The notes: a model not told the origin generated them from the sequence alone. 64,000 nucleotides of DNA from an uncultured Gemmatimonadales bacterium (GCA_963704015.1 CAVPGI010000002.1:36537-100536), one strand, 5' to 3'. Positions 1 to 12,830 are shown, counted from the first letter of the stretch. Numbers and translations are program-made.

Positions 1-758
1 ACCACGGCCTCTCGAGCGCCTGGGTCAAGCCCTGTCTGATGGAGCTGGGCGGCAAGAATGCGACGGTGGTCATGGAGTCGGCCGACCTCGACGCCGCGGC
101 CGAGGGCGTGATGCGCTCGGCCTTCGGGCTCCAGAACCAGAAGTGCAGCGCCACCAGCCGAGTCTACGTCCACCAAGCGGTGGCTCAGCTCTTCCTCGAG
201 AAGCTGATCGAGAAGACCAAGGCGGTGAAGATGGGCGACGTGACGCAGCGCGACGTCTGGTTCGGCCCGGTGATCAACCAGAAGGCGGTGCAGCGTTGGG
301 AGGGCGCCGTGGCCCAGGCGAAGAAGGAGGGCAAGATCCTGCTTGGAGGCGACCGCCTCAAGGGCGAGACCTTCGACCGCGGCCATTTCGTAGCACCCAC
401 CATCGCCACGCTGCCGCTCGAGAGCACCCTCTTCCGGGAGGAGCTGTTCGCGCCGTTCCTGGCCGTGGCTCCGGTCGCGAGTCTCGAGCAGGCGCTGGCG
501 GAGACCAACAAGGCCGAGTATGGCCTCACCGCGGGATTGTTCTCGAAGAAGCAGGAAGAGATCGACCGCTTCTTCGACGAAGTCGAGGCGGGGGTCTGTT
601 ACGTGAACAAGCGCAGTGGTGCTACCACCGGTGCCTGGCCGGGCGCTCAGCCGTTCACCGGCTGGAAGGGGTCAGGCTCGACCGGGAAGGGTGGCTGCGG
701 TCCCTGGTACGTGCAGCAGTTCATGCGCGAGCAGAGTAGGACGGTGGTGCAGGGGTAG
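1..758 (+). CDS. L-glutamate gamma-semialdehyde (1-pyrroline-5-carboxylate) dehydrogenase / aldehyde dehydrogenase family, 3' portion (5' end outside window)
   Basis: ELGGKNA and GLQNQKCSA catalytic motifs and a C-terminal PFTGWKGSGSTGKGG...FM tail typical of RocA/PruA-type ALDH. Stop TAG at 756-758. Confidence 0.75.
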   Translation, partial: HGLSSAWVKPCLMELGGKNATVVMESADLDAAAEGVMRSAFGLQNQKCSATSRVYVHQAVAQLFLEKLIEKTKAVKMGDVTQRDVWFGPVINQKAVQRWEGAVAQAKKEGKILLGGDRLKGETFDRGHFVAPTIATLPLESTLFREELFAPFLAVAPVASLEQALAETNKAEYGLTAGLFSKKQEEIDRFFDEVEAGVCYVNKRSGATTGAWPGAQPFTGWKGSGSTGKGGCGPWYVQQFMREQSRTVVQG

Positions 759-794
759 AGAAAGGCGGTAAAGGCCTGGCTAGTGCCTGCCTTC

Positions 795-850
795 AGTAAC
801 GCAGCGGTAAGGGACCGCTATGCAGCCCTTACGGTTTAGGCTGCGATGGG
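795..850 (+). terminator. Palindromic stem-loop just after the P5CDH stop (GTAAGGG-N12-CCCTTAC flanked by CGCAGC/GCTGCG). Possible terminator or recombination-site structure.
   Basis: Inverted repeats read directly; no T-tract follows. Confidence 0.35.
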
Positions 851-1130
851 GTGTTCTCTGAAGGGTCCATATGCAGTCGAATCGTAGTTAGGTGGTCTGG
901 CACGAGCATCACGATTTCGGTCTTGTCGGAACAGCTTGGTGTGCTGAAACGCCCGTCGCGCCTCCGTTCAACCCGGTTCTCCGGTGGCGGCGGGGGCTGC
1001 CCCCGAGGCCGCCCGTCCCCTCCGCGAGCACCCCCGCCTCGGTCTTCCGGGAAGTCGTTCCCGGCTTCACTTTCCGATATATGGCTCCTCGAAGCGCGGT
1101 CGCTTCCAGGCAGGTGCCCGGTGCGGGCCA

Positions 1131-1236
1131 GCCCCCTAACATGCGCTTGAAGCTGGCGGCGCCGGTGGTTCGAAGGGAATTCCTGATGAGGTGCATTGAA
1201 GGCAGGCGCCGCAGCTTAAGCGCCATCCGTTAGGTG
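1131..1236 (+). repeat. attC-like site 1 (R'' CCCTAAC 1134-1140; R' GTTAGGT 1229-1235)
   Basis: L'' ATGCGCTTGAAGCTGGCGGCGCC pairs with L' GGCGCCGCAGCTTAAGCGCCAT with bulged bases. About 88% identical to sites 2 and 3. Confidence 0.75.
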
Positions 1237-1247
1237 GCGGAGGGTAC

Positions 1248-1634
1248 ATGCCATCAGCAACTCTCTTGCGCCTCGTTCGAGAATGGCTTGACGACGCTCG
1301 AGAAACGCACCCTGCGTCTCTAAGCAAGGACGGCTCGGGTGTAATGATCTACGGCGACCTCGGTGGAGCCGCCTATATCCGCGCGGACGGCACCGTTGTA
1401 TTCGAGCCCTGGGACGACCTTCCTGATAATCAATGGCGGGCCGATCCCGGGTTCGTCTACGCGGTTCTGGTTATTGCTGCCAGAAAGCGGCCGGCTCTCG
1501 CCGAGCTCCTTCCGACCCGACCAGCCGCGGCGACTGATTGCGCGAAATGCGGAGGATCGGGGTGGCTTGCGATCGGCACCCACGAGGTTGTTTGCGGTGC
1601 TTGTCATGGTCTTGGGTGGCTCTCCGCCGCCTAA
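1248..1634 (+). CDS. Cassette ORF: hypothetical protein with C-terminal double CxxC zinc ribbon
   Basis: ATG 1248 with a GGAGGG RBS. Stop TAA 1632-1634 is embedded in the attC2 inverse core GCCTAAC. Contains CAKCGG...CGAC. Confidence 0.6.
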   Translation: MPSATLLRLVREWLDDARETHPASLSKDGSGVMIYGDLGGAAYIRADGTVVFEPWDDLPDNQWRADPGFVYAVLVIAARKRPALAELLPTRPAAATDCAKCGGSGWLAIGTHEVVCGACHGLGWLSAA

Positions 1635-1771
1635 CCAGCGCTTGAAGCTGGCGGGCGCTATCGTTTCAAGGGAAGCGGAGTGTCTGTGCGCTGGCGGGCA
1701 CGAACTCACGATCAACAACGCGGCGCGCCGTGTGCGAGTCGCCCACAGCTTAAGCGCGTGGCGTTAGGCGG
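1627..1771 (+). repeat. attC-like site 2 (R'' GCCTAAC 1629-1635; R' GTTAGGC 1763-1769)
   Basis: Terminal inverted repeats CCGCCTAAC...GTTAGGCGG with an internal CCAGCGCTTGAAGCTGG stem. Confidence 0.75.
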
Positions 1772-1785
1772 AGCCGCACACGCTC

Positions 1786-2118
1786 ATGTCAGCATCACCG
1801 AACGAACAAGCGAGAGCCGCCATCATTACTGCAGCTCAAGCGCTTCTCGATGGACAAATCGGTCCAATCGAGGCTGCGCGTCGCATTGCGACTCGACGCA
1901 ATGACCTCGATCCCAAACAGGAAGACGCCGACCTCCTTGGATTTGCCGGAATTGACTCTCAAACGGATCACCTGCTGCTGGGTGCCGACCTCAACACTTG
2001 GCATCCGAGCGTTCGCGAAGAGAAGACTAAGGAACTCGAGGAAACGGAGGAGTTCTTTCGCGCTTCCGCACTTGAAGGCGCCGCCGCCATCCTCGCTCGC
2101 TATGGGCGCCCCGCCTAA
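1786..2118 (+). CDS. Cassette ORF: small hypothetical protein (110 aa)
   Basis: ATG start. Stop TAA 2116-2118 lies inside the attC3 inverse core. Confidence 0.55.
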   Translation: MSASPNEQARAAIITAAQALLDGQIGPIEAARRIATRRNDLDPKQEDADLLGFAGIDSQTDHLLLGADLNTWHPSVREEKTKELEETEEFFRASALEGAAAILARYGRPA

Positions 2119-2216
2119 CCAGCGCTTGAAGCTGGCGGCGCCGGTGGTCTTAAGGGAATCCCTGATGATGTGCGTTGAAGGTAGGCGCCGCGGCTTAAGC
2201 GCAATGCGTTATACGG
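2111..2216 (+). repeat. attC-like site 3 (R'' GCCTAAC 2113-2119; R' GTTATAC 2208-2214)
   Basis: Same family as sites 1 and 2. Its 3' TTATAC is the reverse complement of the GTATAA of the next attC, a hybrid-site signature. Confidence 0.75.
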
Positions 2217-2372
2217 CACGGATGGCGTATCGTGTCGGCAAGTCCCTGTCACCTTCCGATCCGAATGCAGCTGTTCGCGCGCTATCATCTGACCTACAGC
2301 AAGTGGCCGGAGCGACCTGCTAAGTATCAGCCCGCTTAGCTGTGGCCACACTGGATCTAGCCAGGCCGCACG

Positions 2373-3146
2373 GTGAATCTCAAAGACCTCGCGCACAGCA
2401 TCTTGGCTCCGCTTAGTGAGCTGGTGCTTCAGCCCCTCAAGCAGTTCTTTCTAGGACTGAACGCCGGCGATCAGTTAGTTCTATCCATCCTCCTTGCTGC
2501 CTCAGCTGTCTTGGGCTTCGTCCTTGGCAGGCGCCGGGCCAACCGCGATGGTGTGTACAGGATTTTCGGTGCGTGGCGCTTCCCTGCATTCCAGAATAGC
2601 GGGGAGGCGCGGGTCTCTCATGTCTTGCGTTCACACTTCAGCCCTCCCGACTATCACCTGATGAATCACGTCACCATTCGAATGGATGACGGGACAACGC
2701 AGGTCGACCACGTCCTTGTTTCGCGGTTCGGCGTGTTTGTCATCGAAACTAAGGACTTCAACGGCTGGATCTTCGCGAATGCGACCGACGCAACGTGGAC
2801 GCAGGTTCACTTCCGACGGAAGTTCAAGTTCCAGAACCCGATCTTCCAGAACTTCAGGCACATGCGCGCTGTGGAAGGTCTGCTCGACTTCTTACCGCCA
2901 GAGGCAATCAAGTCGGTGGTCGTGTTCAGCGGTAACGCGGAGTTCAAGACAACGACCCCTCATGGAGTGATTGCAATCGGCGATCTAGCGGAGTACCTAA
3001 GGCGCCAGACCGACGAGGTCATGTCGCTCAACCGACTACAGTTCTGCGTGGGAAGGCTCGAGACAGCACGGCTCGCCATCAGCGGTGAGACCGATGTAGA
3101 ACACATACAGAGTCTCGCGCGACGATTCGGCGACGGCGCCGTATAA
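2373..3146 (+). CDS. Cassette ORF: NERD (nuclease-related domain) protein with N-terminal TM segment
   Basis: HVLRSHF...DYHLMNHVTIRMDDGTTQVDHVLVSRFGVFVIETKDFNGWI matches the NERD signature. GTG start. Stop TAA 3144-3146 lies inside the GTATAAC inverse core. Confidence 0.7.
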   Translation: MNLKDLAHSILAPLSELVLQPLKQFFLGLNAGDQLVLSILLAASAVLGFVLGRRRANRDGVYRIFGAWRFPAFQNSGEARVSHVLRSHFSPPDYHLMNHVTIRMDDGTTQVDHVLVSRFGVFVIETKDFNGWIFANATDATWTQVHFRRKFKFQNPIFQNFRHMRAVEGLLDFLPPEAIKSVVVFSGNAEFKTTTPHGVIAIGDLAEYLRRQTDEVMSLNRLQFCVGRLETARLAISGETDVEHIQSLARRFGDGAV

Positions 3147-3267
3147 CAACCGCATGAGGCTGACCGGCCTCGGCCATCGGTTTTCGTAAGGCCAGCACCA
3201 CTCTCGCTGCCCTGCCTGCTTGCGTGAGCGCGCCTCGGCCGGCAGCTTATGCGGGGCGTTAGGCGTC
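3142..3267 (+). repeat. attC-like site 4 (R'' GTATAAC 3142-3148; R' GTTAGGC 3259-3265)
   Basis: L'' CCGCATGAGGCTGACCGGCC pairs with L' GGCCGGCAGCTTATGCGG with extrahelical bases. Sequence is divergent from sites 1-3. Confidence 0.7.
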
Positions 3268-3289
3268 AGAACGGTGCGGCGAGAACCCA

Positions 3290-3976
3290 TTGCACGCAAA
3301 CAACCTCTTGAGTTCGACCAAGCGAATCGGGACCGGCCTATCCTTCATTATCTTCCCGATAGTCTTCGTCTTTGCCTTTTCGGTTCACCCGGGTTTGCTA
3401 CGCCCTCATGTGCTGGGTCCATCCGAACTCATCCTAAGAGCCCGCGGCGCAGACTTACTTCAGTTCGGGCATGCGTTGGTCACGCTCGATACGGCTCTGC
3501 TCGTGGTCGTCGCGCTGCACTTCATGAAACTCCTCGATCACACTTCTGGCGCATGGTGGGGATTTCTTGGCGCAGCATTGGCGGTATCGGGGTCTCTGGC
3601 GCTGGCAGCTGACAAGGGCGCGCTATGCCTCACGATGAGCGCTCTCAACAAACTCTCCGACGCCGAGTTCACGGCCATGATGCCGGGCCTACTGGCCATG
3701 TTTTCCAAACGCGGGTGGCTTGTCTTGCTCTGGGGGATATTGTTGCTTCCAGTCGGGTTCGGTATCCAGGCCATAGCCTTGCTTAGGAGCAAATCCCTTA
3801 GCCGTTGGCAGAGCCTCCTGCTCTTCGTCGGAGTTCTCCTCATTGGAACGCCTGATGGAGTTGAAATCGTCAACTTGACAGCGTCGGTCCTGCTGGCGAT
3901 CGCATTTGTGCCCTACGGTATTCAGATTATCTGGAGAGAGCATCAAGAAGTCGTTGCAAAGGGCGCTAACCCCTAA
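3290..3976 (+). CDS. Cassette ORF: multi-pass membrane protein (hypothetical)
   Basis: Several hydrophobic helices. TTG start at 3290 or 3308. Stop TAA 3974-3976 lies inside CCCTAAC. Confidence 0.55.
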   Translation: MHANNLLSSTKRIGTGLSFIIFPIVFVFAFSVHPGLLRPHVLGPSELILRARGADLLQFGHALVTLDTALLVVVALHFMKLLDHTSGAWWGFLGAALAVSGSLALAADKGALCLTMSALNKLSDAEFTAMMPGLLAMFSKRGWLVLLWGILLLPVGFGIQAIALLRSKSLSRWQSLLLFVGVLLIGTPDGVEIVNLTASVLLAIAFVPYGIQIIWREHQEVVAKGANP

Positions 3977-4012
3977 CGAGCGCATGAAAGTTGTCGCGCC
4001 GGAGCGGCTACT
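3971..4012 (+). repeat. Partial attC-like site 5 (R''-L'' half only: CCCCTAAC-GAGCGCATGAAAGTTGTCGCGCCGG)
   Basis: Homologous to the 5' half of attC1. No convincing L'/R' partner before the GTTAGCC junction at 4213-4219. Confidence 0.5.
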
Positions 4013-4034
4013 TGAACCAGGGGAGTGAGGCGAG

Positions 4035-4166
4035 CGCCGGTGCCTGGTCCTCAGCTCAGTCGTTCTGTGGATGGAAAGGCTCGGGCTCGACCGGTAAGGG
4101 GGCTGCGGTCCCTGGTACGTCCAGCAGTTCAAGCGAGAGCAGAGCCGGAGGGTGGTGCAGGGGTAA
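4035..4166 (+). pseudogene. Diverged, frameshifted duplicate of the P5CDH 3' end (copy B), followed by a hairpin at 4176-4196
   Basis: About 78% DNA identity to 628-758. Encodes GAWSSAQSFCGWKGSGSTGKG then loses frame. Confidence 0.7.
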
Positions 4167-4259
4167 AGAAGAGAGGGTACCGGCTCGGCCGGTGTCCGCC
4201 TTCCAATAGCTAGTTAGCCCAACGCAAGAGCCGGCCACGCGACATACGAGGAGAGATCG

Positions 4260-5315
4260 GTGAAGAAGCCAAGACGGGCAGAATACACGCCACTCGATTT
4301 CGCCCAATGGAAGGCCTCGAGCTCCCTGTCACTAACCCCAAAGTTCCAGCGACGTGGTGTCTGGAAGCCCGCGGCTCGCTCCTTCTTCGTGGACAGCCTC
4401 CTACGCGGCATGCCGGTCCCGCCTATCTACCTCCGGGAGATGCAGTCCCCCGAACGGGATCGCGTGATTCGCGAAGTCGTTGACGGGCAACAGCGAATCG
4501 CCGCTGTTCTGGACTTCATGGAGGGAAAGTACCGTCTCGCGAAGACCCTGAAGGGTTCATGGGCCGGAAAGCCCTTCAATGGGCTGGCAACAGAGGAACA
4601 GGACCGGGTCACGACTTACGCGTTCTCCGTTGAGGTGTTCCACGGAATCTCGGACTTGGAGGTGCTCGAGATCTTCTCCAGGCTGAACACCTACAGCGTC
4701 TCCCTGAACAGGCAAGAGCTTCGGAACGGGAGATTCTTCGGACTCTTCAAGCAGTCGGTGTACAGCATAGCCTACGAGCACCTGGAGTTCTGGCGTCGTC
4801 ACCGCATCTTCACTGAGCAGAACATCGCCCGAATGCTTGAGGCTGAGTTCGTGAGCGAGGTGTTCATCGCCTTCCTCGCAGGGCAGCAGGACAAGAAGAA
4901 GTCGATCGAGGCTTTCTATGACAAGTACGACGATGAGTTTCCCGACCAGTCGCGCACGGAAAAGCGCTTCCGCGAAGTGGTAGACGAAATACAAGAATCC
5001 CTGGGCGACAATTTGGCCGCGACGGTCTTTCGTCGCCCACCGATACTCTACTCCCTATTCTGCGTGCTGTATCACCGTCAGCATGGCCTTCCCGGTGTCT
5101 CACGTCCAACTCCCAAGAAGCGACTGTCTCAGGAGGAGCGTATGACGCTCCGAGAGGCGGTCGAGTCGCTCTCTGCTCGCGTCGATGCCGCTCGGGCCGG
5201 GGAGGAGGCTCCAACGCGATATGCGCCATTTGTCCAGGCCTGTCTCCAGCAGACGGACAACATCAGACCCCGAGAGACAAGGTTCAAGGCTCTGTATGCA
5301 GCGGCTTTCGAGTGA
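4260..5315 (+). CDS. DUF262 (ParB-like / GmrS-N type nuclease domain) protein; candidate defence gene 1
   Basis: VVDGQQRIAAV (the DGQQR signature). GTG start preceded by a GAGGAGAG RBS. 351 aa with a helical C-terminal half. Confidence 0.7.
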   Translation: MKKPRRAEYTPLDFAQWKASSSLSLTPKFQRRGVWKPAARSFFVDSLLRGMPVPPIYLREMQSPERDRVIREVVDGQQRIAAVLDFMEGKYRLAKTLKGSWAGKPFNGLATEEQDRVTTYAFSVEVFHGISDLEVLEIFSRLNTYSVSLNRQELRNGRFFGLFKQSVYSIAYEHLEFWRRHRIFTEQNIARMLEAEFVSEVFIAFLAGQQDKKKSIEAFYDKYDDEFPDQSRTEKRFREVVDEIQESLGDNLAATVFRRPPILYSLFCVLYHRQHGLPGVSRPTPKKRLSQEERMTLREAVESLSARVDAARAGEEAPTRYAPFVQACLQQTDNIRPRETRFKALYAAAFE

Positions 5316-5318
5316 GTC

Positions 5319-5963
5319 ATGCCGAGGCGAATGCCTGGCCTTCAGGCGGAGTTTCACCGCCAAGTCGCGGAGGCCATGAATCTTGCTGAGATCGGTGAGA
5401 TCGCTCGCGCGGAGGCTAGCGCGGGATCTCAGACCCGCAGTCGGCTGCACCACAGTCGCATCGAACTGTTGTACGAACTGGCGTTCCTTCGCATGTTCCT
5501 CGCGTGGGAGGCCTTTCTGGAACAGACGTTTCTGCGATACCTGTGCGGTTACTCCTCAAGGCACGGCCGCGCCGTTCCGCTCGCTACGGCGTCGTGGTCG
5601 CCTACTCTGGCGCACGCAGAGGCCGCCGTTCTTGGTGGAAGGGATTACGCACTCTGGCACAACCCAACTCAGGTCGCGGACAGGTGCCAGCGCATGTTCG
5701 GAAGTTGTCCCATTGAGGGCGTCGTCCGGTCGAGCATGTCCCGGCTGGAGGCCCTTGCTGCGGTGCGCCATCGCATCGTACACGCGCAGGCTGATGCTCG
5801 CCGCAAGTTTGACAACGCTACGATGACAATTGCGGGCAGGCGCTACAGAGGGGCACGGCCAGGCGCGTTTCTTCGGGACCGAAGTCCCAGCACAACGCCT
5901 CAGGTGCCCTGGCTTGAGCACCTAGGACGGGAGTTGCAGGGTCTTGCTTCTCAGATTGCGTAG
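5319..5963 (+). CDS. HEPN-like protein (Rx4H motif AAVRHRIVH); candidate defence gene 2, coupled 3 nt after the DUF262 stop
   Basis: ATG 5319 lies 3 nt after TGA 5313-5315. C-terminal RHRIVH fits the HEPN Rx4-6H motif. Family assignment not verified. Confidence 0.5.
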   Translation: MPRRMPGLQAEFHRQVAEAMNLAEIGEIARAEASAGSQTRSRLHHSRIELLYELAFLRMFLAWEAFLEQTFLRYLCGYSSRHGRAVPLATASWSPTLAHAEAAVLGGRDYALWHNPTQVADRCQRMFGSCPIEGVVRSSMSRLEALAAVRHRIVHAQADARRKFDNATMTIAGRRYRGARPGAFLRDRSPSTTPQVPWLEHLGRELQGLASQIA

Positions 5964-5997
5964 GCGAGGCAATGGCCGACGGTGGGGCACGGACCCG

Positions 5998-6057
5998 TGG
6001 GCTAACAACGGCATGCAGCGGACGGCCTTCGGCCGGCGCTAATGCCGAGCGTTACCG
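5998..6057 (+). repeat. attC-like site 6 (R'' GGCTAAC 5999-6005; R' GTTACCG 6051-6057)
   Basis: AACGGCATGCAG...GGCC-TTCG-GGCCGGCGCTAATGCCG stem. R'' is exactly complementary to the TTAGCC at 4214-4219, the 5' end of the DUF262/HEPN cassette. Confidence 0.65.
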
Positions 6058-6078
6058 AGTAGGGTAGTGCAGGGGTAA
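6057..6078 (+). pseudogene. Remnant of the last ~6 codons plus stop of the P5CDH 3' end (copy C)
   Basis: AGTAGGGTAGTGCAGGGGTAA encodes SRVVQG* versus SRTVVQG* in copy A. Confidence 0.5.
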
Positions 6079-6084
6079 AGAAGT

Positions 6085-6111
6085 GAGGGCACCGGCTTCG
6101 CCGGTGCCCTC
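6085..6111. terminator. Perfect 12-bp hairpin GAGGGCACCGGC-TTC-GCCGGTGCCCTC; bidirectional terminator between the P5CDH tail and the convergent aminotransferase
   Basis: Read directly from sequence. Confidence 0.6.
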
Positions 6112-6135
6112 TCCGCTTGGTTCTCGAATGCCGAT

Positions 6136-7479
6136 CTAGTCTTCCTCTCCCAGGCACTCCTCCAGAATCCCCATCCCGGTATCCACGTCGTACTCGTCCA
6201 GCACCAGCGGCGGGGCGAGGCGGAACGCACTCTTGCCGCAGCCGAGCAGTAGCAGTCCCTTCTGGAAGGCGCGCATCGGTGACCCGCTCGATCAGCTCCG
6301 GATAGGGCTCCTTCGAGCGGCGATCCTTGACGAACTCCATCCCGATCATGAGTCCCCGGCCCCGCACGTCGCCGATGACGGCGTGACGGTCCATCAGCTT
6401 CCGGGCGTGGCCCATGATCCGCTCGCCCATGGCCTTGATGTGGGGGAGGGACTGCTCCACCACGTCCAGGGTGGCCAGCGCCGCGGCGCAGCTCACCGGA
6501 TTGCCGCCGAAGGTGGAGCCGTGGCTGCCGGACTCCCAGGTCATCACCGACTCCCGCGCGATGAAGGCGCCGATCGGCATGCCCGGATCCCAGCCCCTTG
6601 GCGGTCACCAGGATGTCGGGCTCGACCTCTTCCCAGTCGCAGGCCCACATCTTCCCGGTACGGCCCACCCCGCTCTGCACTTCGTCGGCCACCAGGAGAA
6701 TGCCGTGACGGTCGCACAGCTGTCGCAGCGCCTTGAGGAATCCCATGGGCGGGATCACGTAGCCGCCCTCACCCTGGATCGGCTCGACGAAGATGGCCGC
6801 CACGTCATCGGGCGCCACCTGCCGGCCCATCAGTCCTTCCTCGATCGAGGCGATGACGCTCTCGATGTTCTCCAGGTCGGTGGCGCCCTCCGGTCCCCGA
6901 TAGGGATTGCAGAAGGGCACGTGGTAGACCTCGGGGAGAAACGGCCCGAAGTGGCGCCGCTGTTTGGTCTTGCTCGAGGTCAGGCTCATCGCCCCGTAGG
7001 TCCGGCCGTGGAACGAGCCGTGAAAGGCGATCAGCGCCGGCCGGCGAGTGTGATAGCGGGCCAGCTTGATGGCTCCCTCGACCGCCTCGGTGCCCGAGTT
7101 GGTGAGGAACACCCGCTTGCGGCTGGTTCCCGGGGCCAACCGCGCCAGCCGCTCCGCCAACTGAGCGAACCCCTCGAAGTAGAAATCGGTGCCGCAGATG
7201 TGCAGGAACCGGTCGGCCTGGTCCTTGATCGCCGCGACCACCTTGGGGTGGTTGTAGCCGGTGGCGCTGACCGCGATGCCGGCCATGAAATCGAGGAACT
7301 GGTTGCCGTCGACGTCCTGCACCATGGCGCCGCGCCCGCCGGCGATCACCAGGGGATACTCCTTGATGTAGGACGTCGAGGTCCAGGCCTCGTCACGGTC
7401 GATGATCGCCTTGGCCTTGGGCCCCGGCGGCGCGGCCACGATGCGGGGATAGTCGCGAGTAGTGGTCATGGACGGCATC
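6136..7479 (-). CDS. Class III (GabT / acetylornithine-type) aminotransferase; at least two apparent frameshifts
   Basis: MPSMTTTRDYPRIVAAPPGPKA... and PLP-region motifs DEVQSGVGRTGKMWA, then GMPIGAFIARESVM in another frame. An extra base in the CCC run at 6582-6584. Confidence 0.7.
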
Positions 7480-7510
7480 TCGGTGAAGAAGGCGTCGATG
7501 TCTCGGTGTC

Positions 7511-8899
7511 CTAGGCGTGCACCGCGTGCGTCGCTTCCGCCTTCTGTTCGGCGGCATGCTCGCGCCACCATTGCTGACCGGAGGCGGGCAGGGTGTAGAT
7601 CGGGTCGTAGTACTCGTGCTTCCGCTGGAGCGCGGTCTGGTCTCCCCACTCGATGCAGGTCAGGTAGTTCTTGGTCCAGTAGGAGATGCCCTTCTCCCGG
7701 TCGTACTCCGCCAGCTGGTGGACCCAGCGCTTGCCGACGAAGGGGACGTCGCAGACGATCCGCGGCGTGGCGAAGCCGGGCAGATAGCCCATGATGTCGT
7801 GCTGCAGCTGCTGAGCCTCCCACACGGCGACCCGCCAGTGCTCGGAGTTGGGGATCATGTCGCACATGTAGAAGTAGTACGGCAGGATCTTGGCGTGATC
7901 GAGCAGCATGAAACAGAGATCGAGCAGGTCCGGGGCCGTGGCGTTCACGCCCCGGAGCAGCACGCCCTGGTTCCGGACGTCGCGGAAGCCGATCTCCAGC
8001 AGCTTGCGGGTGGCCTTCCCGACCAGAGGGCGTCACCTGCTGGCCCGCATTGGCGTGGGTGTGCAGCGCCAGGTCCACCCCGCGATCGAAGGCCTTCTTG
8101 GCCAGCCGCTCCAGCCCCTGCGACCACGCTGTCCTGCAGGAAGTGCTGAGGCAGGCCGATCAGTCCCTTGGAGGCCAGCCGGATGTCCCGGATGTTCGGG
8201 ATATCGAGCAGCGCGCTCACGAAGGGCTCGAGCTGGGAGATGTGCAGATTGGCGATGTCTCCCCCGGAGACGACGACGTCCCGCACCGCCGGCGTCTTCC
8301 GCAGATAGTCGAGAATCTGCTGGTGCCGGTCCTTCTGGGGGATCTGGAACTTGAGCTTCTCCACCTGGGGCACGTCGTTGCCGACCAGGTCCATCCGGGT
8401 GCAGTGCCCGCAGTACTGGGGACAGGTGGACAGGAGCTCGGCCAGCACCTTGGTGGGGTAGCGATGGGTCAGCCCCTCGACCACCCACATGTCGGCCTCG
8501 TGCAGGCTGTCGCGCGAGGCCTTGGGGTGATTGGCCCAGTCGGTGCGCCGGTCGTCGAAGGCCGGGATCATGTAGCGACGAACCGGATCCTCCCACAGCT
8601 GCTCCACGTCCATGGTGTTGATCATGTGGGGCGGGAGCAGCATGGACATCGTGGCCCGCAGCTCGTGATCCTTGGCCATGCTCTCGGCCAAGGTGTCGGG
8701 AAGCAACCCGCCCAGGACGCGCCTTGAGCTCGCTCAGGTTCTTGATGGTGTGCCGCCGCTGCCAGGTCGCGCTCTCCCAATCCTCGCGGCTTACGCCATG
8801 GTAGCCCGGGATGCGATTCCAGTCCGGCTCGACGTATTCGCGCCGAGGCGGGTAGGGAATCGGCTGGCCGGTGCTGGTCTCCGCGATGGGTTTCTGCAT
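7511..8899 (-). CDS. kamA: Lysine 2,3-aminomutase (radical SAM); apparent frameshifts near 8040 and 8700
   Basis: CPQYCGHCTR CxxxCxxC motif, LPYYFYMCDMIP, N-terminal MQKPIAETSTGQPIPYPP...WQRRHTIKNLSELKA. Confidence 0.7.
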
Positions 8900-8904
8900 G
8901 CCTG

Positions 8905-9038
8905 CCTCGACCGAAAGGCGTTCTACGCCGAAACTACAATGTGATGTAGTACTTGACGTTGAGAACGTAATATATAATATATGATCACGCAAGTCGGCTA
9001 GTCAAACGCCTTATACCCATAAATAGCGTGAGAGGTCT
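8905..9038. promoter_or_regulatory. AT-rich divergent intergenic region (kamA <-> GntR) with near-palindrome ACGTAATATATAATATATGATCACG
   Basis: Strongly AT-rich island in a GC-rich genome. Candidate operator and promoters. Confidence 0.4.
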
Positions 9039-10681: not shown

Positions 10682-11458
10682 ATGCTCGAGATGACCACTA
10701 CGCCCTCCGAGATGATGGCCGCCGTCGCCGCGCGGGAGCTGGCGAACGGCGAGGTGGTCTTCGTCGGGATCGGGCTGCCCAACCTCGCCTGCAACCTGGC
10801 CCGCGCGCTCCAGGCGCCCGACCTGGTGCTGATCTACGAGTCGGGCGCGGTCGGCGCGGTGCCCGAGCGGCTGCCGGTCTCGATCGGCGACCCGTCGCTG
10901 GTGACCGGATCGCTGATGGTCTGCTCCATGGCGGACGTGTTCCAGCTCTTCCTGCAGAACGGCAAGATCGAGGTGGGTTTCCTCGGCGGGGCCCAGGTGG
11001 ACCGCTGGGGCAACATCAACACCACGGTGATCGGCACTTACCAGAAGCCCGAAGGTCCGGCTGCCCGGCTCGGGCGGCGCCGCGGAAATCGCGATTCACG
11101 CCCAGCGGGTGCTGATCATCAGCCGGCTCTCCACCCGCGCCTTCCCCGACGAGCTGGACTTTCGTCACCAGCCCCGGCCAGCGCAGCAAGGGCAAGTCGC
11201 GCCAGGAGCTCGGGATGCCGGGCGCCGGCCCGGTCAAGGTGATCACCGACAAGGGCATCCTGGAGCGCGACCCGGAGACCGGCGAGATGGTGCTCGCACG
11301 GCTCTACCCCGGAGTCACGGTGGATGAGGTGAAGGCCAATGTGGGTTGGCCGCTTCGGGTGCGGCGAGCAGCTCGAGCGCGTCGCGCCGCCCACCGCTGA
11401 GGAGCTCCGGCTCCTCCGCGATGTGCTGGATCCCAAACGACTCTACCTTGGCAACTGA
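10682..11458 (+). CDS. CoA-transferase subunit B; frameshifted
   Basis: VVFVGIGLPNLACNLARA...ESGAVGAVP...GGAQVDRWGNINTTVIG. Confidence 0.65.
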
Positions 11459-11468
11459 TCCGCAGTAG

Positions 11469-12830
11469 ATGTCCCACGAGCCCGGCGGGCCCCCGCACCG
11501 AGCTCCCCCGCAGCCTCGGCCTGCGCGACCTGGTCCTGTTCAACATCGTCGCCGTGCTCAGCCTGCGGTGGCTGGCTACCTCCGCAGCCGCGGGACCCAG
11601 CTCGCTCACGCTCTGGGTGCTGGCCGGCCTGCTCTTCTTCGTGCCCCAGGGCCTCGCCGTCAGCGACCTCGCCAACCGCTATCCGGACGAGGGTGGGATC
11701 TACTTCTGGACCAAGCGCGCCTTCGGCGAGGGTCACGGGTTCCTGTGCGGCTGGTGTTACTGGGTCAACAACGTGCTCTACTATCCCAACCTGCTGATCT
11801 CCACCTCGGTCATCGCCACCTTTGCCATCGGGAAAGGCGACAGCGGGCTGGCGGACGACCGGGTATACGTGCTGCTCGCGACGCTGGTGATGCTCTGGTT
11901 CGCGGTCGGGATCAACATCGTCGGGATGAGCACCGGCAAGTGGCTGCAGAATCTCGGCGCCTTGGGCACCTACCTGCCGGGTCTGCTGCTGGTCGGTCTC
12001 GGCGTGGGCGCGATGATGCACCAGCCACTCCGCCAACGCCATCACCACGCGGAGCCTGGTCCCGGATCTGACCGCAGTTCGGCGAGCTCAACCTCTGGGC
12101 CTCGATCGCCTTTGCCTTCGCCGGCCTGGAGCTGGCCTCGATGATGGGCGGGGAGATCAAGGATCCCGCACGCACGCTGCCCCGCTCCATCCTGCTGGCG
12201 GCCCCGCTCATGTGCCGCCCTCTACCTGGCGGGGACGCTCGCGGTACTCTGGCTGGTGCCGGCCGACAACGTCAACATCGTGTCCGGCTTCCTCCAGGCG
12301 ATCGCGGCCGGGGCGCGGGAGTCTGAAATGGCTGGTGACCATCGCCGGGGCTCTCTACGTCATCGGCAACCTGGGCGGTGTGGGGGCGTGGTTGACCGGC
12401 CCGGCCCGGGTCGCCTTCACCATCGGCCTCGACCGGTACTTTCCTCCATGGTTCGGGCGGATTCACCCCAAGTGGAAGACGCCTTACGTGGCGATCCTGG
12501 TGGCGGCCGGCCTGGCGACCGGATTCCTGATCCTCTCGGTGATCGGCAAGGGAACCACGGTGGAGAAGGCCTACCTGGTGTTGCTCGACACTATGCTGCT
12601 GATCTACTTCGTCCCCTTCATCTACCTGTTCCTGACCTACATCAAGGTGAGGCTGATCGAGCCGGCTCCCGCGGTCATGTTCCCGCGAGACGCAACCCGG
12701 CGCCGTGCTGGTGGGAGCGGCAGGGCTGTTCCTCACGCTGTTCGCGATGGCGGTGGCGATGGTGCCGCCTACCGGGACGGAAAGCGTGCTAGTCTTCGAG
12801 CTCAAGGTGGTTGGCGGTGCCTCGGCTTCT
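11469..12830 (+). CDS. APC-family amino-acid permease; several apparent frameshifts
   Basis: 12 hydrophobic segments; LGLRDLVLFNIVAVLSLRWLATSAAAGPSS, FWTKRAFGEGHGFLCGWCYW. Confidence 0.6.

Follow-up and report, generated by a model that had tools for sequence, protein, structure and literature searches.

We analysed a 64,000-nt stretch of the chromosome of an uncultured Gemmatimonadales bacterium (GCA_963704015.1 CAVPGI010000002.1:36537-100536), called the window in the following, which begins inside a P5CDH gene of the aldehyde dehydrogenase family. An earlier note on this DNA had described three diverged direct copies of the end of this gene and of its terminator, and all three, here called A, B and C, are indeed present. 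Positions 888-6120 are an integron-type cassette array that is inserted between the P5CDH gene and a class-III aminotransferase gene and is of the type known as CALIN, in which attC sites cluster without an integron integrase. The array starts at an anchor behind the working gene end (copy A) that seems to behave like an attI site. Copies B and C may be partial internal copies of this anchor, and would then be a chromosomal counterpart of the delta-attI-type cassette ends, an explanation to which we give about an even chance.

In a BLAST comparison within the 64-kb window, copy A (600-794) and copy B (4009-4203) are 78.6 % identical over 196 nt (E 3e-41), copy B (4149-4197) and copy C (6061-6109) are 87.8 % identical over 49 nt (E 2e-12), and no comparable match to the tail is present elsewhere. 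The similarity did not fall to background on alignment, which the earlier note had named as the outcome that would speak against related copies; the homology between A and B begins about 28 nt upstream of the limit given there (at 600 and 4009) and runs through the stop codon and the terminator to GCCTTC. As had been described, copy B is frameshifted and its hairpin is weakened: the pseudo-tail corresponds to 158 nt of the P5CDH tail, of which 1 nt has been lost from a run of G at about 4101, and the hairpin folds no better than shuffled sequence (z -0.38). Copy C, previously read as the last six codons followed by a perfect hairpin, keeps about 22 nt of the tail, which correspond to its final six or seven codons (AGT AGG and, after a gap of one codon, GTA GTG CAG GGG TAA), and its hairpin is a perfect 12-bp stem at 6085-6111 (z -4.6). 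The cassette junctions G|TTAGGT and G|TTAGCC lie 128 nt past the stop codon of A (887|888) and 47 nt past that of B (4213|4214), the spacings reported before, and the next cassette follows directly after B, from 4214 on. At copy C the junction at G 6120 is unoccupied and is followed by 15 nt of native flank and then by the stop codon of the aminotransferase gene. Copy B adjoins a half attC of cassette c4 and copy C the complete attC6 of cassette c5, and both copies end at G|TT; the units in the array are therefore c4, consisting of an open reading frame (ORF), the half attC and copy B, and c5, consisting of two genes, attC6 and copy C. The half attC and copy B were also considered together as one long attC, a candidate that was rejected, as the sequence before 4213 lacks the 3' arm (CAACTTTCATGCGCTC..GTTAG) that such a site should have.

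The array itself is made up of six promoterless cassettes with five full attC sites and one half attC, and every ORF in it reads in the P5CDH direction. An attC covariance model, built from the window's own sites and scanned over the window, recovered the five full sites, all within 1130-6062 and none elsewhere, with scores of 90-102 bits for the attC sites of c0-c3 and of 41 bits for attC6. The stem shared by the attC sites has 90.8 % paired cells and compensatory change at 5 pairs; their bottom strands form bulged hairpins in which the GTTAG/CTAAC box is paired (z -3.2 for the attC6 fold). Sites of this kind are recognized by an inverted pair of R'' (RYYYAAC) and R' (GTTRRRY) boxes, by L''/L' pairing and by bulges over a length of about 57-141 nt, and the five sites, 57-142 nt long, have all of these features. 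Their R' boxes are GTTAGGT, GTTAGGC, GTTATAC, GTTAGGC and GTTACCG and their R'' boxes (C/A)CTAAC or ATAAC, and the stop codons of the c1-c4 ORFs fall inside the R'' box. The half attC at 3970-4008, at which there was no full match to the covariance model, was found as a member of the repeat family and matches a full attC of the related locus L001 at 82.5 %, the match ending at 4011. A scan of positions 1-9000 against Rfam (E<=1) gave no match. The GC content of the array is 0.56-0.62, compared with 0.66-0.70 in the flanks.

A tblastn search with an IntI1 sequence as the query gave no match at E<=10 within the window, and no credible IntI/Xer-like ORF was found by tblastn in 160 related loci (L numbers in the following) that we had gathered with a P5CDH fragment and that are nearly all from Gemmatimonadales, including the 4-5 kb upstream of P5CDH in L081 and L082. 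Neither in the window, which starts inside P5CDH, nor in the related loci was an intI gene found that adjoins an attI site and an array, as in a complete integron. A CALIN is defined by at least two clustered attC sites and no integrase nearby, and the window has five full attC sites within 5 kb; as no integrase was found near the array, we class it as CALIN-type and not as a complete integron. The same results bear on the idea of a classical integrative island or phage that inserted with a tyrosine recombinase at the P5CDH 3' end and left the tail copies as attL and attR. Direct repeats of a gene 3' end around inserted DNA are the usual textbook signature of such an element. However, such an element would have an integrase gene and an identical core repeat at both ends, whereas here no integrase or recombinase ORF was found in the insert or the window, the insert consists of attC-bounded single-gene cassettes, and the repeats are 78-88 % identical and unequal in extent, with no identical core, so that we regard an island as very improbable. 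The earlier note had suggested successive site-specific insertions by elements carrying their own version of the tail. In the sense of integrative elements, as in genomic islands, this is unsupported, as no recombinase was found and the left edges of the copies lack a common crossover; the part of the suggestion in which incoming blocks bring their own tail and displace older ones stands as a live rival and is weighed below.

Relatives that lack the array, in which the P5CDH-aminotransferase interval was to be inspected according to the earlier note, show the empty site. Relatives have the aminotransferase orthologue next to P5CDH in convergent orientation, and in many of them the two stop codons are 14-220 nt apart, mostly with a single large hairpin between them, while in the window the distance is 5.4 kb, with 5.2 kb of inserted DNA (888-6120). 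Arrays of attC sites behind P5CDH were found, among the 160 loci, only in the window, in L081/L089 and in L001/L082, and the P5CDH of the window is 95-96 % identical at the amino acid level to those of L001, L081 and L082. In all three lineages the array starts in the same manner, with the last P5CDH codons, the stop codon, the terminator hairpin and then, at about 47 nt from the stop, CCTTCCAAT-N5-G|TTAG; across the lineages the last part reads CC(T/C)TCCAAT, then 5-6 bases, then G|TTAG. The similarity between the lineages stops exactly at G|TT, and the cassettes behind it differ, save for a NERD cassette that is common to the window and L089 (83 %). Anchor A differs in the 128 nt between its stop codon and junction, which is explained by an insert of about 80 nt (795-872) between the hairpin and the junction. 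This insert is unique and structured, an inverted repeat (CCTTCAG/CTGAAGG) enclosing two hairpins, and it has no significant copy in the window or the related loci and no match in Rfam. An attI site is a double-stranded site to which the cognate integrase binds and at whose G|TT, beside the start of the array, cassettes are inserted. The same start point with different first cassettes in three lineages is attI-like behaviour and suggests that the anchor may be the point where cassettes enter. This fits an alternative that the earlier note had put forward, namely an attI-like platform associated with the P5CDH tail, as does the break of homology at G|TT in the three sister lineages that share the anchor.

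The spacer between the two genes varies in other ways as well. In the empty-site relatives L010 (10711-10931), L048 (10714-10870), L049 and L077, the short spacer consists of tandem heptamer-like repeats, for example CTCACTT with GAGAAGT-type arms, which form long hairpins. Between P5CDH and aminotransferase, L021, L023 and L024 (about 10711-11400) have a conserved ORF without attC, whose product of about 190 aa has a signal-peptide-like N terminus, so that this spacer also gains ordinary genes. Inserts of 0.4-5.5 kb at the same spacer in L009, L037, L017, L042, L007, L029 and L002 were examined as further arrays and rejected: they have no attC, a GC content like that of the flanks and long ORFs. 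These inserts and the ORF of L021, L023 and L024 are ordinary differences in gene content and not arrays.

Internal anchor copies are also found outside the window. L082, of which L001 is a partial twin, shows the same nesting with unrelated cassettes and has two internal anchor copies, m2 (6552-6612), which sits behind a degenerate attC, and m3 (12120-12187), which is more decayed and comes straight after an ORF stop codon. A 15-mer in copy B, CCAATAGCTAGTTAG, is common only to the internal copy m2 of L001/L082. Among the 160 loci, an nhmmer profile of the tail-terminator module gave no copies other than those of the window, L001/L082 and L081/L089. As the same nesting is seen in L082/L001 with other cassettes, the tail copies are recurrent scars of this type of array. 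They are junction scars of separately acquired cassette blocks and not target-site duplications; this upholds two points of the earlier note, which had argued against a fresh target-site duplication and had taken the copies to separate independently acquired modules.

This nesting, and the sequencing of the locus, also speak to an assembly artefact in which strain variants of one locus would have been concatenated in a metagenome contig. A possible sign of such trouble is the aminotransferase gene, which is split over three frames (7469-6582 in frame -2, 6598-6275 in frame -3 and 6273-6139 in frame -1; tblastn with the L010 orthologue as the query). The two breaks, near 6273-6275 and 6582-6598, mean either a pseudogene or indel errors, and in the latter case the loss of 1 nt in copy B might have the same cause. 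However, in two short collinear contigs from other sequencing runs, to which an exact-protein look-up with the ORF at 4260-5315 led, the gene positions match window positions 3898-6218, which cover the junction of the half attC with B, copy B, c5, copy C and the end of the aminotransferase gene, and both have an identical 351-aa protein, its 214-aa neighbour and the aminotransferase end. The order of half attC and B, C and aminotransferase was therefore assembled independently, and the same nested architecture is present in the independent assemblies L001 and L082, so that an artefact is highly unlikely.

The age of the copies can be read from their differences. Between copy A and L081 these are distributed over the three codon positions as 1/1/12, and between A and B as 9/6/15, including changes at conserved residues such as the QPF motif. 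Copy B is therefore an old pseudogene fragment that was formerly under selection, and neutral change in it appears to be of the order of the divergence among these sister lineages. Past the stop codon, identity is 0.67-0.80 among the internal copies, with 0.80 between B and m2, as against 0.53-0.62 among the three working anchors; A is 0.60-0.65 identical to B and C, and 0.53 to the working anchor m1. If the gene end had been duplicated in place long ago, for example by unequal sister-chromosome exchange at attC and the gene tail, and the copies had then diverged without any foreign tail, this would agree with the 9/6/15 pattern, as neutral decay of B and synonymous change in A since one old event, and with the finding that B and C are closest to each other in the hairpin core (88 %). 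However, one such event does not sit well with the post-stop identities, which are only 0.60-0.65 for A against B and C but 0.80 for B against an internal copy of another lineage, nor with the different types of attC on the two sides (long as opposed to 57 nt), and we consider this explanation improbable.

Provided that the anchor counts as the primary site, B, C and the L082 copies m2 and m3 are all partial copies of the primary site that stand at a cassette 3' end and end at the crossover G, as in delta-attI-type cassettes. For the way in which they might have arisen, in which we infer the enzyme, the direction of events and the intermediates, we propose the following. In a first step, an integron integrase acting in trans, or in the case of B perhaps an illegitimate join, would join a cassette block by its attC end to the P5CDH 3' end, where a part of the gene tail that resembles the 3' arm of an attC would serve as the substrate. 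The resulting molecule would carry the gene tail, the terminator, the insertion point and the cassette, and in a third step it would be placed into the array at G|TT. Afterwards the copies would decay, as may be seen in B with its frameshift, changed conserved residues and weakened hairpin. The P5CDH tail GCAGTTCATGCGCGAGCAGAGTAGG (window 715-740) agrees with the consensus of the attC 3' arm, GCAGCTTATGCGCCATCCGTTAGG, taken from arms such as 1209-1235, at 17/25 positions (empirical p about 0.005 in this post hoc comparison), and the remnants C and m2 start where the R' box aligns. The QF-MREQSR codons of the tail are conserved in all relatives, and the attC look-alike is therefore present in every genome, including those with the empty site; no relative has a variant of P5CDH in which GTT stands at the C boundary (…ELPSR…), and nearly all of them keep REQSRTV.

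Several observations weigh against this origin. On their left, B, C and the two L082 copies begin about 160, 25, 25 and 35 nt before the stop codon, and in no case at a GWT site, 5'-GWT-3' being the known secondary-site consensus of integron recombination (bioRxiv 10.1101/2022.09.11.507474). Between the crossover G of attC6 and the start of the tail homology in C there are 5 nt (TTACC), and copy B adjoins the loop of an attC, a join in the middle of the site that looks illegitimate rather than site-specific, and for which an extra deletion or an illegitimate event is needed. The term attI-like is what we infer for the anchor of an array that has no associated integrase. Finally, the identity of 0.80 between B and m2 is about that of vertical descent from a single ancestral anchor, while A and m1 are 0.53 identical, and C is contiguous with the native flank; displacement of older tails suits the former at least equally and explains the latter without recombination at 6120.

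In such a serial displacement, C would be the original gene end, and blocks from related strains, each bringing a P5CDH 3' end with terminator, anchor and cassettes, would have pushed the older tails, C and then B, downstream. The left joins would be made by homology inside P5CDH and the right joins by illegitimate or attC-mediated events in the last 25-160 nt of the resident gene, and the working tail would be the newest. We see this as a possible, though not a probable, course of events. It explains why C runs straight on into the native flank and the stop codon of the aminotransferase gene, and the junction of the half attC with B at -160 has the look of an illegitimate join made at a random end of linear DNA. 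In addition, the post-stop identity of B and m2 (0.80) is near the neutral divergence expected between the lineages, as for orthologous relics of one ancestral anchor, and the identity of only 0.53-0.62 among the working anchors A, m1 and L089 looks like an origin from separate donors; chromosomal integrons are documented to take up array DNA by natural transformation (PMC12614218). However, the right joins would have to fall within the last 160 nt of the gene in four cases out of four. It is also unlikely for random joins that C and m2 begin at the same nucleotides (CGAG|TA), and the NERD cassette behind A that is common to L089 (83 %) makes the A-side array old, both of which are mild objections. 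The identity between the window and L081 shows no drop across the visible 758 nt of P5CDH, which is uninformative if the crossover was upstream of the window. The tails may have been imported with their cassettes or may be older resident tails pushed downstream, and we agree with the earlier note in settling on no insertion chronology.

Returning to the delta-attI-type origin, a further step would be to take the terminator region of the housekeeping gene, that is the P5CDH tail, hairpin and G|TT, as the true primary site of an integrase encoded elsewhere, with the tail as a pseudo-attC arm through which host coding sequence is repeatedly excised and re-inserted. We consider this rather unlikely. 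If true, the locus would be a natural record of the pick-up of chromosomal DNA by an integron, with a bearing on the question of cassette origin, and would represent an integron platform that is physically uncoupled from its integrase.

The features of the locus are collected in Table 1. The product of the first c5 ORF (351 aa) belongs to GmrSD_N/DUF262 (Pfam E 4e-20) and matches NsnA (E 1e-34) and PD-T4-2_A (E 2.5e-22) in PADLOC, and the product of the second (214 aa) had no family match; the two genes are a candidate for a cassette-borne anti-phage system. In c0 (888-1132) the sole long frames cross the attC or sit on the opposite strand, and this cassette has no significant copy elsewhere in the window or in the related loci. 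Exact-protein look-ups with the ORFs at 1248-1634, 3290-3976 and 2373-3146 returned no record, and a homologue search with the P5CDH fragment gave mostly short partial proteins and no new gene context. In the sister array of L089 an attC core at 3500-3550 is changed, with GGGTAGGT in place of CGTTAGGT, and represents a decaying site.

Table 1. Features at the P5CDH-aminotransferase locus, in window coordinates
Feature	Position	Strand	Details
P5CDH gene (aldehyde dehydrogenase family), 3' part	1..758	+	Pfam Aldedh E 7e-64; last 159 nt (600-758) are copy A, the working tail
Anchor A	759..887	+	Terminator-like 759-794 (aligns with anchors B and L089); insert 795-872; junction GTCGAATCGTAG|TTAGGT, crossover G 887
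Cassette c0	888-1229	+	attC 1133-1235; no convincing ORF
Cassette c1	1230-1763	+	ORF 1248-1634; attC 1628-1769
Cassette c2	1764-2208	+	ORF 1786-2118; attC 2112-2214
Cassette c3	2209-3258	+	ORF 2373-3146, NERD domain (Pfam); attC 3146-3264
Cassette c4	3259..4008	+	ORF 3290-3976, 228-aa membrane-like protein; ends in 5' half attC 3970-4008
Copy B	4009..4213	+	P5CDH pseudo-tail 4009-4166; weakened hairpin about 4174-4197; junction CCTTCCAATAGCTAG|TTAGCC, crossover G 4213
Cassette c5	4214..6057	+	ORFs 4260-5315 and 5319-5963; short attC6 6001-6057, G|TT at 6051|6052
Copy C	6056..6120	+	Tail remnant 6056-6078 (TAA 6076-6078); perfect hairpin 6085-6111; junction CCGCTTGG|TTCTCG, G 6120
Native flank (6121-6135) and convergent class-III aminotransferase gene	6121..7481	-	Stop codon 6136-6138

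The locus offers a dated, multi-lineage record of the addition of cassette blocks at one chromosomal hotspot and indicates that host gene fragments can enter cassette arrays. It also provides a defined sequence of about 70 nt that can be tested as a recombination site once the cognate Gemmatimonadales integrase is known; the case alone reveals no new mechanism.

To our knowledge, the partial attI copies inside arrays that have been described up to now come from clinical mobile integrons. The locus studied here has a scar of this kind in an array that is environmental, chromosomal and without an integrase, and where the copied site overlaps the end of a metabolic gene and its terminator. Delta-attI-type cassettes of class 1 and 2 integrons carry 8-238 nt of attI, or the whole attI1, at the cassette 3' end, where it replaces or follows attC, and they are functional substrates of IntI1 (PMC12901181, Gonzales Machuca et al. 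2026). The copies described here are like them in being partial copies of the array's own primary site that lie inside the array, at a cassette 3' end, and end at the crossover G, and their size of about 65-205 nt compares with the 8-238 nt up to whole attI1 of the known examples. They are unlike them in that there is no adjacent integrase or proven attI, that the copied anchor includes housekeeping-gene coding sequence and a terminator, that the setting is chromosomal and in Gemmatimonadales, that the copies are old and decayed, and that attC is also kept in two of four cases.

With cassettes inserted into ordinary chromosomal DNA (CALIN/attG), the locus shares several attC-bounded cassettes without an integrase, at a G|TT in intergenic DNA that fits the GWT consensus. 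In contrast to a single attG insertion, at least three lineages have kept and reused one and the same point, which is also duplicated inside the array, and this reuse speaks for attI-like behaviour rather than for a one-off attG event. The sedentary chromosomal integrons of Xanthomonas are fixed beside the housekeeping gene ilvD, with intI between the gene and the array. The fixed position beside a conserved metabolic gene across related species and the fairly homogeneous attC sites within the array are similar in both systems; however, in Xanthomonas intI precedes the array, whereas the array of the present locus begins 47 nt past the stop codon, and the searches revealed no intI. Islands at the 3' end of tRNA or protein genes likewise have repeated gene 3' ends that flank the insert and leave the gene intact, but they differ from the present locus, where no integrase and no identical core repeat was found and the content is a cassette array. 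The locus is therefore best described as a variant of CALIN arrays combined with delta-attI-type cassette ends, and what is special about it is that the duplicated site holds host coding sequence and has been reused across lineages without an adjacent integrase.

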